DNA of 64,000 bases from an uncultured Candidatus Saccharibacteria bacterium (GCA_964567265.1 CAZMLK010000001.1:91311-155310); one strand, 5' to 3'. Counted from the first letter of the stretch, positions 1 through 52,431 are shown. A program made the numbers and translations. The notes: a model not told the origin generated them from the letters alone.

Positions 1-213
1 GCGCCGCCGCAAGCGCCGCGCGGAGCGGAAGCGCATGCGTCACGCGAAGCATCATCATACGGAATAATTACGCGACGCTCAGGCTTCGTGGTCGTTCATA
101 ACCCCAGTGCACTTGATTGGGTTTTTCAACCGCCCTCTGTGCTTTAGGCGGGAAATCCTTGACACATCATTATAATAATTGTAGGTTGCGCAGAGTCTTG
201 AGGGAGGAAGAAT

Positions 214-654
214 ATGGCTCAAGAGACGCAATCGGCCATCGTGACCAAGCTCGGGCTCCTGGTAGCCGGCATGCACCGGCTGATCGAGCTCGAATTCCAT
301 GTGAAGCCGAAAGTGACCGGGGACCGGGCCCTCATATTGCTCGAGCTTCATAAATTAGGCGGCAGCGTGACGAACAAGTACTTCGTGGCCGCCGGGGTGT
401 ATGCCGGTGCGAACATCGCATATAACTTGGACAAGCTGCATCAGGACGGGTACATAATCCGTTCGACCTCACAGATTGACGCGCGAGAAACCGAGCTGCG
501 CATCACCGAGAAAGGGACACGGCTCGCAAAGAGAGTGCAAGAGTTCTTGGAGCCACTCGAGCAGTTGCTCATCGATGCGGGATTTACGCACGATGCTCTC
601 ATCAAGCTCGCGCGCGACATCGAGGATCGGTACCGTCCGGTCCGTATCTTATAG
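214..654 (+). CDS. MarR-family winged-helix transcriptional regulator
   Basis: 146 aa with a wHTH-like core (RALILLELHKLGGSVTNKYFVAAGVYAGANIAYNLDKLHQDGYIIR) typical of MarR; size fits. Confidence 0.5.
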   Translation: MAQETQSAIVTKLGLLVAGMHRLIELEFHVKPKVTGDRALILLELHKLGGSVTNKYFVAAGVYAGANIAYNLDKLHQDGYIIRSTSQIDARETELRITEKGTRLAKRVQEFLEPLEQLLIDAGFTHDALIKLARDIEDRYRPVRIL

Positions 655-28619: not shown

Positions 28620-28712
28620 GCGGATATAGTTTAGTGGTTCAGAATCATGAATCCTTCCCCGAAGGATTCATTTCCCAAGCATAGGGCGGGAGTTCTTCAA
28701 CAATTGATGACC
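28620..28712 (+). pseudogene. tRNA-Gly-derived pseudo-tRNA / structured element
   Basis: The first 18 nt (GCGGATATAGTTTAGTGG) are identical to the tRNA-Gly immediately downstream. Then a perfect 10-bp hairpin ATGAATCCTT-CCCCG-AAGGATTCAT, then TTCCCAAGCAT (identical to the tRNA-Gly anticodon-loop segment). There is no canonical T-arm. Confidence 0.3.
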
Positions 28713-28783
28713 GCGGATATAGTTTAGTGGCAGAACTGGTGCTTCCCAAGCATCGGACGGGGGTTCGATTCCCCCTATCCGCA
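28713..28783 (+). tRNA. tRNA-Gly (anticodon CCC)
   Basis: Acceptor GCGGATA/TATCCGC. D-arm GTTTAGTGGCAGAAC. Anticodon stem-loop GGTGC-TTCCCAA-GCATC. T-arm GGGGG-TTCGATT-CCCCC. 71 nt. Confidence 0.85.
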
Positions 28784-28844
28784 CAATTTTCTCAAACTTG
28801 CTGAAGTGGTATACTACCCGGACTTGATTAGTTAAGAAATCCGT

Positions 28845-29170: not shown

Positions 29171-29207
29171 GGGCCGAAGGCCCGGGGCGGTTTTTCGTGG
29201 GCGATTC
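29171..29207 (+). terminator. intrinsic terminator after the glutaredoxin gene
   Basis: aaaaccgccccgggcc-gaag-gcccggggcggtttttc. Confidence 0.65.
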
Positions 29208-29272
29208 CGCATGCTACATTGCAGGGAAGTCCGAGGGACGCTTCGCAATGAAGCTCCCCCCGGAACTTCATT

Positions 29273-29344
29273 GCCCCCGTAGCTCAATGGATAGAGCAGT
29301 CCCGTCCTAAGGGAAAGATATGAGTTCGATTCTTGTCGGGGGCA
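29273..29344 (+). tRNA. tRNA-Arg (anticodon CCT)
   Basis: Acceptor GCCCCCG/CGGGGGC. D-arm GCTCAATGGATAGAGC. Anticodon loop GTCCTAA. T-loop TTCGATT. 72 nt. Confidence 0.8.
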
Positions 29345-29353
29345 CCCAGAATC

Positions 29354-29510
29354 AAAAGACCGGATTTACTCCGGTCTTTTGATTCTGCAGGGGTGGGCGA
29401 GAATCGAAGGTCGGAGAACAGGCTTCGGGGAAGCCTGTTCGAGGCGGGGTCGCGAGCACTTAGCCGCTTGCGGCTTAGTGACTTGTGACCGATTCTTGTT
29501 CCAAAAAAAC
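29354..29510 (+). repeat. tRNA-linked structured element, copy 1 (terminator hairpin + ~120-nt conserved RNA-like module)
   Basis: aaaagaccgg-atttact-ccggtctttt hairpin, then an outer stem agaatcg...cgattct enclosing hairpin aacaggcttc-ggg-gaagcctgtt and the core GGGGTCGCGAGCACTTAGCCGCTTGCGGCTTAGTGACTTGTGACC. It is paralogous to 32485-32648 with compensatory base changes. Confidence 0.55.
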
Positions 29511-29702
29511 CGCAAGGTGTGGTCCTGTAAGGGCCGATGGAAAGGGTGCCAGCGTTCCAAAGGCGGCATAAATACTTAGGTGAAATGATTCGGGGAATCA
29601 TTTCACGGTGACCGATTCTTACCAAGGACGCATCCCTTGACAGAATCACTCCGAAGTAATCTAATTTCCCCAGACCTAAACCCTTCAGAGGAGTTTCGAA
29701 CC

Positions 29703-30545
29703 ATGCCTCGATTGGTGTATCAGATTCAAGGAATTGGATCCGCGAGTGCGCGCAATCCACTGTTTCACTCCGGCGGGATGTTCGTATCAGCAGACAACCG
29801 AGACGGTCCTGTGAATCGGCTGCTGTACGAATGCGGTGCCGATATCTTGAGCCGGCTTGATCAGTTCGGAAAGAGGCCTGCTGACTTCGGGTCACTCTTG
29901 GTGACCCACCAACATGCAGACCATATCGGCGGGCTGGAGCACTTCGCATACGAGACCTGTTTTGATTCCAAGTATGTCGGTGACGGCGGTCCTCCTGGTG
30001 CAGTATTTCCGTCGTCATTTCGCCCGAAGCTCTATCTGCCCGTGGACGCGGTCCCGTTCGTCGAAGCGTGGGCGGAGCGGGGAGGGCTGTACCACCCGAA
30101 ACTCGGCATCACCTCCCCGTACCGCTTCTTCGATATCGAGCCTATCCACGACACGATGGAATTTGAATGGGGCGGCGCACTCTTTACAGTCATCCAGGTG
30201 CCGCATGTCAGCGGTAGCACGGGCAGCCTGTGTTCCCATGCGCTTTTCGTACGCAAGGGAAGGCAGAACCTGCTCTTGACCGGCGATCTCAGTCTGGAAG
30301 GCTGCAACGTCCTCATTCCGTGGTATGAGCAGGCGACCTGGATCATTCAGGACTGCGATATCATGGGAATATCCGAAGTGCATCCTTCGTATGAGATGTT
30401 GCGATCCGGGGCGTCCGATAAGATGCGAAAGAAGATGATTCTCACGCATCACATCGCTCGGATGACCGATGGGCTGCCGGACGCGGTCGCGGATGGATTC
30501 CATGGCTACGCGTACCAGGGCCAGCAGATTCGTTTCGAGCCGTAG
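29703..30545 (+). CDS. MBL-fold metallo-hydrolase
   Basis: HQHADHIGGLEHF (HxHxDH motif), plus later His and Asp ligands. Start taken at MPRLVYQ (29703). Confidence 0.7.
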   Translation: MPRLVYQIQGIGSASARNPLFHSGGMFVSADNRDGPVNRLLYECGADILSRLDQFGKRPADFGSLLVTHQHADHIGGLEHFAYETCFDSKYVGDGGPPGAVFPSSFRPKLYLPVDAVPFVEAWAERGGLYHPKLGITSPYRFFDIEPIHDTMEFEWGGALFTVIQVPHVSGSTGSLCSHALFVRKGRQNLLLTGDLSLEGCNVLIPWYEQATWIIQDCDIMGISEVHPSYEMLRSGASDKMRKKMILTHHIARMTDGLPDAVADGFHGYAYQGQQIRFEP

Positions 30546-30617
30546 AAGTTCATTGCAGCCAACGCCGCGTTTTCCCCTCCGGGGAAAACGCGGCGTTTTG
30601 CTATACTACTCACAATC

Positions 30618-32027
30618 ATGCACGAGGGCGCTCCTGTTGAAACTGAAAAGAAGAACCCACGCCGCCATCTCGGCGTGAAGGAAGCTGCGCTTGCGGCGAC
30701 GGTCGCATTTACCTCTGCAGCCTCGGAAGGAAAATCCTTCCAGCACTTACGCGGCACGCATGAATCGGCGACGCAAGAAGGTGATCTCAAGTTCAGAGAA
30801 CAGTTCCAAAGCCTCAACAGCACGCTCCGCGTCTTGGATGCAGGGCCGATCGTCGATGATATCCTCTCCGAGATGGATACGATCCGCCGCGGATCGACCG
30901 GGAAGATCCACTATGAAGAGACACTCCGTTCGCTGTATGAGCGGCACATCGTACGCGACATCTTCGAGGATCTCGCGATCGACCGTGAGCGGCTCATGGG
31001 GCGCATCGTGAGCGAGGCAGGCTCTACGCGGAATGAAGCCATCCATGAACTCAGGAATCTTGGTGAGAAAGTGTTGCGGATCGCCAAGGCGGCCGAAGAG
31101 GCAGGGGTCGAGATTGATGGAGCGGACATACCGTACCTCTCTCCCGAAGCGCTTGATGCCGTCAAGGAATACGATAACGGCCTCAGGAATGCCGTAGACG
31201 AAGTGCTCTCATTTTTCCGTCAAAGCGGCCTTCCGGGAGGTACGTTTGAGCAAGATCTCCTTTCAGAGGGACGCATGAATCCCGAGGCGGATTTCGAGCG
31301 CACGCGCGAACTCATTGATGTCTACGCCGATCGCCTCGGCGCCAGGCTCGAATACATCCTTTCGAGCCGCGAACGGACAGGCTCGGATGCCTATCAATCG
31401 GTCATTACTGAAGATCTGTATGGTATTACAGAGACGACCGCTGCGTTCCGTGGCTTCCGGGAACGATTTTATGCGGCACACGGTGAAGAGGTCTCACCAC
31501 TCGACAGTGCAGCTTTTGAGGCGCTTGCCGCGCTTAATCCGGAATCTAATCCAGATGCTGCTGAAAGTGCGCGCCTCGCCCTCAGCGAAGCGCTCGCGCC
31601 GCATCTTGATGCGGCCAAGGACGCGCTCAAGGAAGTGATCCTCGCGACCATGTACGGCGATCCATTGGAAGTGGATCGCCGCGTTGCATCCTTTCGATTC
31701 ACGGGCGAGACCATTGCCGAAGCGGAATGGTACTTGGGTAGCGTGAAGCGCCTCGAGAACGAGCTTGAGAAGCAGCTTGCATGGGAAATCACGAATGCGG
31801 AAAGCCAGATCGCGCGTGAACCCACCATGCTCACCGAAGAAGCGCTCGCGAATAACCGCCTCCGCGTCTGGACGCTCTTCCGTGCGATCAAGCAACTCTC
31901 TGATCATGTCGCCGAGCCGCTCGCAGGCATTCTCGGCTATCCCGATATGGAAGTCGGCTTCTCAGAAGAGCTCCTGGCGCGGTTCCATGCGCTGAAACAG
32001 GGACTGCACGAGGAGGAGCCGATCTAG
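30618..32027 (+). CDS. hypothetical acidic alpha-helical protein
   Basis: 469 aa. Uninterrupted ORF with codon usage like its neighbours. No recognisable catalytic motif. Confidence 0.5.
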   Translation: MHEGAPVETEKKNPRRHLGVKEAALAATVAFTSAASEGKSFQHLRGTHESATQEGDLKFREQFQSLNSTLRVLDAGPIVDDILSEMDTIRRGSTGKIHYEETLRSLYERHIVRDIFEDLAIDRERLMGRIVSEAGSTRNEAIHELRNLGEKVLRIAKAAEEAGVEIDGADIPYLSPEALDAVKEYDNGLRNAVDEVLSFFRQSGLPGGTFEQDLLSEGRMNPEADFERTRELIDVYADRLGARLEYILSSRERTGSDAYQSVITEDLYGITETTAAFRGFRERFYAAHGEEVSPLDSAAFEALAALNPESNPDAAESARLALSEALAPHLDAAKDALKEVILATMYGDPLEVDRRVASFRFTGETIAEAEWYLGSVKRLENELEKQLAWEITNAESQIAREPTMLTEEALANNRLRVWTLFRAIKQLSDHVAEPLAGILGYPDMEVGFSEELLARFHALKQGLHEEEPI

Positions 32028-32067
32028 CCGGCATTGGTTCGTAAAAGCGGCCTTTGTTGGTATACTT

Positions 32068-32394
32068 TTGGATATGGAAATGGACGAAGAAGGGAAACGT
32101 CTCCTCCGGGAGACGCTTGCGGTTGAAAAGGAAAACAACCTGATGCTCCGGAAGATGCGTCGAGACGCGGTCGTCGGCCGCATCATGACCCTGGTCTTTT
32201 GGGCGATCACGCTTGGCCTCCCGATCGTCATCTATTACTACTTCCTCTCGCCATACGTCGCCCAGATCACGGCGACCTACCAGAGCATGGAGCAGAATGC
32301 CAAGCAGATGGAGGCCCTCAAGGCCGATCTCCCCGATTGGGCGCGCAATTTGTTCGATAAGGCATTTTCTGGTACAACAACTGATGCGAGGTAG
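32068..32394 (+). CDS. small membrane protein (hypothetical)
   Basis: 108 aa with a central TM helix RIMTLVFWAITLGLPIVIYYYFL. Ends 9 nt before tRNA-Phe. Confidence 0.45.
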   Translation: MDMEMDEEGKRLLRETLAVEKENNLMLRKMRRDAVVGRIMTLVFWAITLGLPIVIYYYFLSPYVAQITATYQSMEQNAKQMEALKADLPDWARNLFDKAFSGTTTDAR

Positions 32395-32402
32395 GGGGCA
32401 TG

Positions 32403-32475
32403 CCGAGGTAGCTCAGTTGGTTAGAGCATTTGTCTGAAGAACAAAGGGTCGGCGGTTCGAATCCGCCCCTCGGCA
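32403..32475 (+). tRNA. tRNA-Phe (anticodon GAA)
   Basis: Acceptor GCCGAGG/CCTCGGC. D-arm GCTCAGTTGGTTAGAGC. Anticodon stem-loop TTTGT-CTGAAGA-ACAAA. T-arm GGCGG-TTCGAAT-CCGCC. Confidence 0.85.
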
Positions 32476-32484
32476 CATGAATAC

Positions 32485-32648
32485 AAAAGACCGGCTCAAA
32501 GCCGGTCTTTTGTATTCACAAATGCCGCCGCGGGGCGGATTCGAAAAGCGGAAAACAAAGGTTCGGGGAACCTTTGTTTGAGCTGGGGTCGCGAGCACTT
32601 AGCCGCTTGCGGCTTAGTGACTCGTGACCGAATCCGCCCCTCGCGAAC
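32485..32648 (+). repeat. tRNA-linked structured element, copy 2
   Basis: aaaagaccgg-ctcaaa-gccggtctttt hairpin. Outer stem ggggcggattcg...cgaatccgcccc. Internal hairpin aacaaaggttc-ggg-gaacctttgtt. Same 45-nt core as copy 1. The 3' end mimics the tRNA-Phe T-arm/acceptor 3' half. Confidence 0.55.
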
Positions 32649-32713
32649 GATTAGCAACTGACGACCAAACCACTATAAAAACATCCGGCAAGTGCCGGAT
32701 GTTTTTATCGCTT

Positions 32714-33235
32714 TTAGTTCGCCTTCACCTTCAGCTTGGTCTGCTTCGCCTTGTCGATCTTCGGGAGTCGGATGGTGAGGAGGCCGTGCTTCTCGATCGC
32801 TTCCGCTTCCTCGACTTCGATTTCCTGAGGAAGGAGGATTGTCCGGGAGAATGACCCCCAGTAGAGCTCGCGGTAGAAGTAGTTGTCGTCGGAGACTTCG
32901 CGTGCATCCTCGCGCTTTCCGCGGATGGTCACCATGTCGCGGGTGATTGAGACATCGAGATCCTCAGGGCGCACTCCGGCGACGATAGCTTTGATGACGA
33001 TCTCATCCGGGTCCTGATAGACGTCCACGGTGAGCTGACCTTCAAGCTCTTCCTCTGGTTCCTGGAACTGCTGCTGTGGCGCTGCCATCATTTGCGCACG
33101 CTCCTGAGGGCGCTGAGAAGCGCCGGGAGCCATCCGCGCGGATGATGCCATCGGCTGGTCCTCGAACTCATCGTAGTCATCCATCTCCACCGATCCGGTG
33201 AGCCGCTCGAAGAATGAACGCTTTTCTCGTGCCAT
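32714..33235 (-). CDS. Hsp20/alpha-crystallin family small heat-shock protein
   Basis: 173 aa. The C-terminal alpha-crystallin domain ends ...GSFSRTILLPQEIEVEEAEAIEKHGLLTIRLPKI (the I/LxI/L-like tail). Confidence 0.85.
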   Translation of the reverse strand: MAREKRSFFERLTGSVEMDDYDEFEDQPMASSARMAPGASQRPQERAQMMAAPQQQFQEPEEELEGQLTVDVYQDPDEIVIKAIVAGVRPEDLDVSITRDMVTIRGKREDAREVSDDNYFYRELYWGSFSRTILLPQEIEVEEAEAIEKHGLLTIRLPKIDKAKQTKLKVKAN

Positions 33236-51626: not shown

Positions 51627-52431
51627 GGACTGTACTCCAAGTGGTTGAGTTCGGTACCTACCGCTTGTTGTCGTTCCCCGAAAGGAAGGACAGGAAGAGC
51701 GTGAAGCCGACCATGGTCTCGTAGTACTGGCCGACCACGTTGCGGAGAACCGCATAGCCGATGATGCGCATACGCGCTTGGATACGGAACCAGAACAAGA
51801 TGCGTTTCGCGTTCCGGAGGTCACGATTGATCTCGCGGAGCTTTGTCTGGTCAACGGGCGTCAGCATGGAAATCACCCTCTTTTTAGCTGTCGAAGAAGT
51901 CGAATTTGTCTGGGGAAAACATACCACGAATACGTAGTAATGTCAATATGTGGAAGGAAGGGAGTGAATCGATGCTCACCCCACTTTTTGACCAAAATCA
52001 ATTTCGTGCCCCGCGAATTTTTGAAAAAATTCGCGGGGCACTCTTCAAACACGCACGCAACACGAAAATAGCAAGTATGAATTCTTCATGCTCTCAAGGA
52101 CACGCTATCGGACACGGAAATTGGCGGCTCCATAGAGCCGTTTTGTCTCAGCCAAAACGGTTTGTTTGACAGTCTTTTAGTGTCGTTTTCCTCACGAAAG
52201 GTGTGTATTACTTCCTCACATTTTCCTCATACTCGATTGCTATTATGTTGCTCTCACCAAGGAATGGAGCAGGCGAATGTAGCCAGTGCCGGAAGCTCTA
52301 CCCCTTAATTCAGTCCCCGACTTGGGGGCGAGAGTTACCGAGCGGTGGCATATGGGAGGTCGGTTCCATAGGCTCCTTCCGAAAAGGTGAAGAACATTAC
52401 AAGCACTGATTAGCTATAAATTTACGTCTCA

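Follow-up and report, generated by a model that had tools for sequence, protein, structure and literature searches.

Miniature inverted-repeat transposable elements (MITEs), REPINs, and the palindrome-associated elements derived from IS200/IS605 are short, gene-less, multi-copy, intergenic sequences with stable hairpins, and it is with such structured non-autonomous repeats that the element described here may best be compared in kind. The element was found in a 64,000-nucleotide (nt) stretch of DNA from an uncultured Candidatus Saccharibacteria bacterium (GCA_964567265.1, CAZMLK010000001.1:91311-155310; "the window" means this whole stretch), where two copies of a Y-shaped module lie directly downstream of the transfer RNA (tRNA) genes tRNA-Arg(CCT) and tRNA-Phe(GAA). 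Like MITEs and REPINs, the module is short (~100-190 nt), is more alike within than between genomes, occurs in tandem and decayed copies, varies among close strains, and presumably depends on an external factor.

Three features set the module apart from these repeats: target-templated arms, coupling to tRNA, and an RNA-type pattern of conservation. Unlike those of a MITE or REPIN, its termini are one inverted and one direct copy of the 3' quarter of a tRNA and differ at every locus. It is strictly linked to the 3' flank of tRNA or transfer-messenger RNA (tmRNA) genes, in a single orientation, and its branches meet in a three-way junction with unpaired nucleotides that do not vary and with a G.U pair that is conserved. 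Finally, no cognate transposase was found near the module in the neighbourhoods studied, which comprise 8-kb loci (numbered L below) plus the one 64-kb window.

Two RNA systems should also be kept in mind. YrlA Y RNAs mimic tRNA; the Ro60 site reads GGUCCGA/UUGACC, and the YrlA motif is GNCGAA(N)G (PMC4201824). Group I introns of Patescibacteria interrupt the anticodon loop of tRNA genes (position 35/36), exceed 200 nt in length, and are recognised by Rfam intron models (PMC13011429). The module resembles the introns in host group, in its association with tRNA, and in being a protein-less element of reduced genomes, probably of RNA, but it lies outside an intact tRNA, differs in site and size, and matches no intron model; we therefore rejected a group I tRNA intron as its identity.

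The two modules belong to a multi-copy, gene-less, structured element on tRNA 3' flanks that is specific to Patescibacteria (the Candidate Phyla Radiation, CPR). The conserved core of this element covaries on the sense strand, and the adjacent tRNA supplies the sequence of the closing stem. The family is absent from Rfam 15 and no description of it was found in the searchable literature, so it is apparently undescribed. The features of the two loci in the window are as follows.

29272-29348, + strand: tRNA-Arg(CCT), called by ARAGORN; 56.7 bits with the Rfam tRNA model
29347-29387, + strand: hairpin X1, an 18-bp perfect stem CAGAATCAAAAGACCGGA / TCCGGTCTTTTGATTCTG, overlapping the tRNA-Arg 3' end and homologous to X2
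29393-29503, + strand: module copy 1, Y-shaped; 87.4 bits with covariance model R1, E = 5.6e-22
29395-29406, + strand: 5' arm of stem P1 of copy 1, followed by the junction AAG at 29407-29409
29410-29445, + strand: P2 of copy 1, with lower stem GUC/GGC, internal loop GGA/GA, and a hairpin at 29416-29440
29446-29447, + strand: junction GG of copy 1
29448-29490, + strand: P3 of copy 1, with the invariant G.U, the bulged A, and a CUUG tetraloop
29490-29499, + strand: 3' arm of P1 of copy 1, a 10-nt direct copy of tRNA-Arg from C56
29500-29622, + strand: unit B, a second, degenerate unit in tandem with copy 1, with a UUC-GGG-GAA-loop hairpin at 29580-29606
32402-32476, + strand: tRNA-Phe(GAA), called by ARAGORN; 75.8 bits with the Rfam tRNA model
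32478-32518, + strand: hairpin X2, a 19-bp perfect stem at the centre of a ~104-nt imperfect palindrome
32524-32543, + strand: inverted copy of tRNA-Phe positions 56-72, GCCGCGGGGCGGATTCG; 16/17 nt complementary
32530-32642, + strand: module copy 2; 94.4 bits with covariance model R1, E = 5.9e-24
32532-32543, + strand: 5' arm of P1 of copy 2, followed by the junction AAAA
32548-32584, + strand: P2 of copy 2, with lower stem AGC/GCU, loop GGA/GA, and hairpin UUC-GGG-GAA
32587-32629, + strand: P3 of copy 2, preceded by the junction GG
32629-32643, + strand: 3' arm of copy 2, a 15-nt direct copy of tRNA-Phe C56-70

A first-pass annotation, made from the sequence of the window alone, had reported the same layout behind both tRNAs: a hairpin, an outer stem, an inner hairpin with compensated differences, and a core with a palindrome. 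All of these are present. The stem common to X1 and X2, CAAAAGACCGG/CCGGTCTTTTG, is matched twice as a pattern (expected 0), and the two hairpins differ by a single compensated pair, A-T versus C-G. The outer stems are GGGCGAGAATCG/CGATTCTTGT.TCC in copy 1 and GGGGCGGATTCG/CGAATCCGCCCC in copy 2; the inner hairpins, again with compensated differences, are AACAGGCTTC-GGG-GAAGCCTGTT and AACAAAGGTTC-GGG-GAACCTTTGTT, and the apex is AGCCG-CTTG-CGGCT. The 37-nt core GGGGTCGCGAGCACTTAGCCGCTTGCGGCTTAGTGAC occurs exactly twice in the 64 kb, at 29446-29482 and 32585-32621, whereas none is expected from shuffles, and 60 nt around it are 92% identical between the copies. Both copies fold into the Y shape on the + strand, copy 1 at -63.2 kcal/mol (z = -6.9) and copy 2 at -76.3 kcal/mol (z = -8.3), and the folds of the - strand are weaker (-45.3 and -70.4 kcal/mol, respectively).

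Two features had escaped that annotation, namely the inverted tRNA copy in the 5' arm and unit B. At the Phe locus, the 5' arm of P1 is the last 12 nt of the inverted tRNA-Phe copy. Because this inverted copy spans 17 nt with one mismatch, 32449-32552 forms the ~104-nt imperfect palindrome, which consists of the tRNA-Phe 3' part, X2, and the inverted copy. At the Arg locus, the 3' end of unit B reads GGTGAC followed by CGATTCTTAC, once more ending in GTGACCGATTCTTAC; the covariance model gives no match to unit B. Hairpins with unlike stems but a common loop and closing pairs, TTC-GGG-GAA, occur at 29415-29441, 29580-29606, and 32553-32579, and also at 28643-28667 on the - strand. The sequence TTCGGGGAA occurs five times in the window versus 0.72 expected, and one of these occurrences, 51674-51682 (-), stands in another sequence context.

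Since the source genome is not among the species representatives, a degenerate pattern, GGTCGCGAG-N24-34-CTYGTGACCGAWTC, was needed to look for relatives and was run over 185,579 species genomes. It returned 51 loci, of which 49 are in Patescibacteria or unclassified metagenome-assembled genomes (MAGs), one in a MAG labelled Elusimicrobiales, and one in Streptomycetaceae; the last lies inside a coding region and is an evident chance match. The taxa include Saccharibacteria, Paceibacteria, Nomura-, Kaiser-, Lloyd-, Adler-, and Gracilibacteria, and several genomes have two to four matches. The pattern had no match in the viral collection, and an exact 20-mer of the core had none in either the genome or the viral collection. 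A phage origin was rejected on this empty viral scan and on a distant blastn comparison with phages, which gave one 21-nt chance match.

A covariance model (R1) built from 26 members was then searched against the window and the pattern loci. The first-pass annotation had asked whether further copies exist, and the model finds 74 at E < 1e-3, many of them without a pattern match. A tRNA or tmRNA 3' end lies on the same strand within 450 nt upstream of 62 of the 74 (median 58 nt), and the remainder are mostly at contig ends or beyond larger insertions. Nearly all isotypes are represented, among them Ser, Tyr, Leu, Ala, Arg, Thr, Glu, Pro, Met, Gly, His, Phe, Cys, Lys, Val, and Asp, and to these tmRNA must be added: a module at 172-295 (-) in L054 follows a tmRNA gene (367-788, -), from which it follows that the element tracks the T-arm and the 3' end and not tRNA identity. 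Two loci (L049 and L055) have one module per tRNA. While the Y-shaped module itself measures ~110 nt, most units are 130-190 nt long, and they have no open reading frames (ORFs). There are two architectures, one with a P2 branch, as in the window, and a shorter one in which the 5' arm leads to P3 via AAUAGG.

In Rfam 15, tRNA models alone match, whether the window is searched at the gathering threshold, the interval 29200-32800 at E <= 10, or 16 loci of the family at the gathering threshold; a known RNA family can thus be set aside, as the first-pass annotation had supposed, and its proposal of a novel tRNA-associated noncoding RNA holds up. Hammerhead and K-turn junctions were considered and rejected, as by inspection the conserved nucleotides fit neither consensus and no model matched. 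TIGR-Tas arrays were judged unrelated, being tandem guide arrays that adjoin Tas genes.

The general order of parts is tRNA, long hairpin X, inverted copy of the tRNA 3' quarter, G-A-A-R, optional P2, G-G, P3, and direct copy. Stem P1 closes the Y by pairing the inverted with the direct tRNA copy; P2 is an optional branch whose internal loop, G(G/C)A opposite GA, is invariant; and P3 is a long hairpin with a sequence-conserved base that contains the G.U pair and the bulged A. Pair statistics were taken from 46 sequences in an alignment that had been fitted to the model: standard pairs fill 94.8% of cells, versus 76.4% with shuffled partners and 32-42% with slid partners, both sides have changed in a compensatory manner in 20 of 29 pairs, and the covariation score is 0.498 versus 0.164 in shuffles. 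None of 500 shuffles reached the observed values. The middle pair of the P2 lower stem is a good example, being GC in 17 sequences, CG in 16, AU in 7, and UA and UG in one each. The suggestion, made originally from two copies, that the stems are under selection for pairing is supported across these 46 members.

The strand that carries the structure can be read from the mismatches. G.U or U.G pairs number 116 versus 13 for A.C or C.A, and 45 versus 13 after two conserved G.U columns are left out; this excess identifies the + strand as the structured one and fits RNA. There are also near- or fully invariant unpaired nucleotides that the search pattern did not contain, namely G-A-A-R, G(G/C)A opposite GA, GG, and the bulged A in P3 (46/46).

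As a separate observation on P3, the apex motif CUUA-UGAGCGNAGCGAA-UUAG is common to many unrelated genomes (e.g., L009 2393-2441 (-), L025 3214-3262, and L042 4449-4497), and the window copies have a plain CUUG-capped stem in its place. This apex is a possible candidate for a tertiary-contact or protein-binding loop.

The closing stem differs from the core in that its sequence comes from the neighbour. In tRNA-Arg(CCT), the source of the module-arm copies is its T-loop and 3' part (TTCGATTCTTGT...). The first-pass annotation had noticed that the 3' arm mimics the T-arm of its own tRNA, and this is general: the sequence after GTGAC is that of the tRNA from T-loop C56 onward, exact over 8-26 nt and at times reaching into the trailer. 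In the window, the match is 10 nt for Arg (CGATTCTTGT) and 15 nt for Phe (CGAATCCGCCCCTCG). A direct copy of at least 10 nt is present in 23 of 48 cases, versus 1.1% in permuted controls. An inverted copy of the T-loop and T-stem 3' strand of at least 9 nt is present in 27 of 48 (controls, 1.9%), and one of the acceptor 3' strand of at least 7 nt in 23 of 48 (controls, 6.1%). Downstream 9-mer copies are inverted at 35 of 76 and direct at 29 of 76 tRNAs of the CPR loci, whereas a non-CPR metagenome control had neither kind downstream of any of its 73 tRNAs.

The inverted copy runs from T-loop C56 through the T-stem 3' strand and often on through the acceptor 3' strand. In many members it is complete (19-20 nt) and split by a hairpin, P0, at the T-stem/acceptor boundary (L010, L016, L020, L057, and L011). 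Apart from a 5-6-nt T-loop motif, each locus has arms of its own, copied from the tRNA beside it, and there are no conserved terminal inverted repeats. The inverted copies enter the trailer of the gene and not CCA, and they must therefore have been templated on DNA or on the primary transcript and not on the mature tRNA, which rules out a retro-copy of mature tRNA. At loci whose downstream copy no longer matches the tRNA, the partner of the 5' arm is the tRNA alone in 18 cases, the 3' arm alone in 7, and either of them in 19, so that the arms look like tRNA copies that drift later and not like a continuously compensated stem.

One might also regard the module as a second, decayed tRNA whose T-loop has received an insertion. 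This reading was rejected: at TTCGATT T-loops the 5' arm, AATCGAA, complements the 3' arm and does not repeat the T-loop, and in L020 two wobble positions make the inverted copy, with its acceptor-like strand, the reverse complement of the tRNA 3' strand and not a copy of the 5' strand.

The history of the copies points to turnover. A sister strain is available as short-read contigs only (its version of a 469-aa protein encoded between the two modules is 87% identical), and at its Arg locus the flanks are near-identical, including the 5' arm and the final CCGATTCTTACC. Between these flanks, 65 unrelated nt stand in for the whole stretch equivalent to 29410-29610. Copies are commonly arrayed in tandem, as in the window and at L034, L025, L026, L028, L032, L040, and L050, and the tRNA-proximal copy scores best in 4 of 7 arrays. 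P3 apices have a mean identity of 0.82 within genomes and 0.56 between them. One genome has near-identical interiors after five of its tRNA genes, those for Ser(cga), Ser(gga), Glu, Gly, and Val (L010, L016, L020, and L057); the same interior serves more than 15 tRNA isotypes within single genomes, and both Arg and Phe in the window. The short-read contigs of the source strain break within the core, as is expected of a repeat. Some genes remain unoccupied, tRNA-Gly and tRNA-Ser in the window being examples.

Because of the replacement in the sister strain, the tandem arrays, the likeness within genomes, and the lack of a nearby recombinase, we favour, at a probability of about 0.5, a non-autonomous, proliferating element of selfish type that persists and spreads among tRNA genes. 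Under this reading, read-through from the tRNA promoter would yield a folded single strand, most likely RNA, as which the element would act, and the fold would be needed for its persistence or spread. Spread and homogenisation may proceed via motifs present at every copy or tRNA, that is, GAWTCGAA on the left, GTGAC-CGAWTC on the right, and the TCGA palindrome of the T-loop, and these flanking motifs could serve as switch or recombination points. Both tRNA-derived arms would be made by templated synthesis on the target, by fold-back or copy-choice, and would not be carried along. The P2/P3 core might be recognised by a trans-acting CPR factor or might itself be catalytic.

A more specific form of this proposal, which we consider improbable, is a new kind of protein-free, RNA-based, Y-shaped element, either ribozyme-like or factor-recruiting, that exploits the conserved T-loop and installs itself behind any tRNA gene. 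Fold-back or copy-choice templating at the TCGA palindrome would then copy the tRNA 3' quarter twice, once in each orientation. In its boldest version, the downstream copy, which runs from C56 to the 3' end and makes a tRNA-like helix, would be a spare part or a decoy for tRNAs that have been cut in the T-loop.

Several observations weigh against a proliferating element. At the loci examined we identified no enzyme or mechanism of spread and found no clean pair of empty and filled sites. In L046, the inverted copy fits the tRNA-Glu variant of a relative and not the tRNA of its own locus, and the 5' arm at the Arg locus of the window resembles the complement of another tRNA end; it follows that the 5' arm is sometimes inherited and not re-templated. 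Caution is also needed with the conservation itself, as the alignment behind the pair counts was fitted to the model, and the search pattern demanded both the P3 base and CGAWTC, so that their invariance is partly by construction in 40 of the 46 aligned sequences. Finally, two related loci at the same tRNA, L020 and L046, show compensated changes in hairpins X, P0, and P2, which could equally mean long-term host function in place and not selfish spread.

Those last changes lead to the main rival reading, in which the module serves the host, as a functional 3'-trailer RNA of CPR tRNA operons acting in cis. We regard this as possible but rather unlikely. As a structure it could aid processing or insulation, or it could mimic tRNA as Y RNA does: the closing stem would reproduce the acceptor/T-stem stack of the neighbouring tRNA, and the core would bind a CPR protein for tRNA maturation, quality control, or regulation. 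A switch is conceivable as well, since the inverted copy could pair either with the tRNA or with the downstream copy. Such a role would suit the invariant unpaired nucleotides, the helix sequence conserved across CPR classes, the compensated change found in each hairpin between related loci at the same tRNA, the tRNA-like junction that the arms form with P0 where P0 is present, and those loci in which every tRNA carries a module (L049 and L055). It sits less easily with the tRNA-Gly and tRNA-Ser genes of the window, which do without one, with the unrelated sequence that replaces the module in the sister strain, and with the existence of tandem and decayed copies. The downstream tRNA copy is often just 7-10 nt, and the excess of within-genome over between-genome likeness is the opposite of what orthologous functional genes show. 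In short, the unpaired conservation and the compensated evolution are equally natural under host service, and patchy occupancy, replacement, decay, and genome-wise likeness fit it less well.

The comparison with Y RNA deserves a closer look. Like YrlA, the module would be a ~100-nt RNA with a tRNA-like helical stack and a sequence-conserved helix. Its P3 base, GGUCG/UGACC with a G.U pair, resembles the Ro60-binding helix GGUCCGA (PMC4201824) and may be taken as a lead, though not as a test. The partial motif likeness to Ro60 sites and YrlA, which is a resemblance in sequence, extends to GGUCGCGAG/..GUGACC and to the junction UCGAAAG. Unlike YrlA, the module has no T-loop or D-loop mimic, its stems are copied from the adjacent tRNA, and it is multi-copy; no Rfam Y RNA or YrlA model matched even at E <= 10. 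YrlA is encoded beside rsr (Ro60), whereas no rsr gene was seen next to the module at the loci inspected: the 25 commonest Pfam families in 259 neighbouring ORFs include none with a TROVE domain, although a singleton could escape this list.

Geometry suggests a different alternative, which we hold to be quite improbable: that the module is a recombination site that folds as single-stranded DNA, an analogue of the integron attC site or of the attP(+) hairpin of CTX phage. The paired arms would mimic the duplex of the right half of a tRNA gene, and a recombinase or HUH enzyme acting in trans would insert at the T-loop. A second box for protein binding would lie in the P3 base, the bulged A would be extrahelical, and the apex would be the variable terminal structure. 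As in attC and attP(+), inverted arms pair around a ~90-nt spacer, with conserved bulges, a variable apex, a strand-specific structure, and cassette-like units beside the target; moreover, the junction falls exactly at the T-loop TCGA palindrome, and both the cassette-like replacement between fixed arms and the tandem arrays would be explained. The module has, however, no R''/R' consensus (RYYYAAC / GTTRRRY); its arms consist of GAWTCG/CGAWTC and tRNA-specific sequence and vary with the target, unlike attC R boxes. G.U (as DNA, G.T) pairs are abundant and one is invariant, and such heavy use is more typical of RNA. Viral contigs yielded no module, the loci examined have no linked IntI or Xer gene, and their surroundings show no enrichment of integron integrases, of Xer-type or HUH enzymes, or of other recombinases.

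This absence of enzymes holds for the neighbourhoods as a whole. Over 50 loci, neither clustering (330 neighbouring ORFs) nor Pfam scans (259 ORFs) showed enrichment of a recombinase, reverse transcriptase, transposase, or integrase. The neighbours are housekeeping genes, such as those for Mur ligases, aminoacyl-tRNA synthetases, Clp, and DnaB, and the window, which itself resembles a CPR chromosome, also encodes housekeeping genes, including one for a 703-aa leucyl-tRNA synthetase.

The T-loop is a classic sublocation of tRNA-targeting integrases, and the first-pass annotation had weighed the modules as scars of a mobile element, with the 3 kb between them as its body. That they are attL/attR scars of conventional integrase islands at tRNA-Arg and tRNA-Phe, the 3-kb segment being the island, is now largely refuted and very improbable. 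As with attL and attR, the insert is flanked by directly repeated tRNA sequence that reaches from the T-loop to the 3' end, and the tRNA stays intact; this part of the att-like claim stands. The rest does not: there is no integrase, the unit measures ~110-190 nt, a single interior lies behind many isotypes in one genome, an extra, inverted copy of the target lies inside the unit, and the fold is under selection. Most copies are, moreover, gene-less 130-190-nt units among housekeeping genes.

The 3-kb segment encodes three proteins, among them a metallo-beta-lactamase (MBL)-fold protein (29703-30545), whose weak similarity to the anti-Pycsar phosphodiesterase Apyc1 might favour a mobile origin but is below threshold (32.7 bits versus a cut-off of 50), and the 469-aa acidic protein (30618-32027), which has one relative (87% identical) among 5.8 billion proteins. 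The sister strain keeps the three genes in the same order, and the Arg-side module is there replaced; as the genes are present in both strains whatever the state of the module, an island bracketed by modules was rejected. The bracketing noted at first is thus not supported as meaningful; it is coincidental, each module going with the tRNA directly upstream of it.

In sister strains, the DNA beside the HSP20 stop codon is also unlike that of the window (L006 5430-5899, L007 3512-5098, and L008 4109-4339) and holds a gene for a 309-aa protein and a further ORF. The junction reads ...ATATTCGAATC followed by TAGTTCGCC, with a T-loop-like TTCGAATC at the breakpoint.

Large serine recombinases are encoded at three of the loci: L041 1880-3559 (-), L028 232-1827 (+), and L050 6723-8000 (+). 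In L041 (6 kb) and L050 (at least 8 kb), the recombinase belongs to a defence island that lies between the tRNA and the module, with SMODS/CBASS-like cargo in the former and Abi_C plus an NB-ARC/STAND NTPase in the latter, and these islands speak for integrase scars. The recombinase was nonetheless rejected as mobiliser. A module is carried by 0 of 80 metagenomic relatives (L060-L139); the family integrates at the extreme 3' end of tRNAs, where the direct repeats of its islands are found (L064 and L070); and the L041 island sits between the tRNA end and an already complete, pre-existing hairpin and module. In 20 of 27 near-full-length metagenomic relatives, an opposite-strand tRNA (Pro, Leu, Ser, His, Gln, or Glu) abuts the 3' end of the recombinase gene or lies just beyond it. 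All three recombinases belong to separate islands, apparently recombinase-driven and aimed at tRNA 3' ends, which use these tRNA genes independently of the module.

Whichever reading applies, there are practical and general consequences. Patescibacteria have genomes among the smallest of bacteria, and still the element adds ~110-190 nt to many tRNA genes in the examined loci. As far as Rfam 15 and the searchable literature go, there is no earlier description of a conserved, covarying, RNA-like fold systematically attached to tRNA genes and borrowing their own T-stem and acceptor sequence. If selfish, it would represent a new route by which a gene-less element colonises an essential, conserved target without destroying it; if host-serving, an unrecognised layer of tRNA maturation or quality control in a major bacterial branch. 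The module explains assembly breaks beside tRNA genes in CPR metagenomes, and the covariance model is ready for use in annotation.

Two minor observations should be recorded. In L028, the recombinase gene lies between inverted repeats of ~120-150 nt (65-214 and 1684-1827), which include its last 48 codons and the flank of a tRNA-Arg, and the segment may be invertible. In the window, 28620-28712 is a partial duplicate of the 5' end of tRNA-Gly(CCC), situated immediately 5' of the genuine gene (tRNA-Gly, 28713-28784). The two agree over 18 nt, GCGGATATAGTTTAGTGG, and further on over TTCCCAAGCAT; the duplicate has an inserted hairpin, ATGAATCC-TTCCCCGAA-GGATTCAT, and is not called by ARAGORN.

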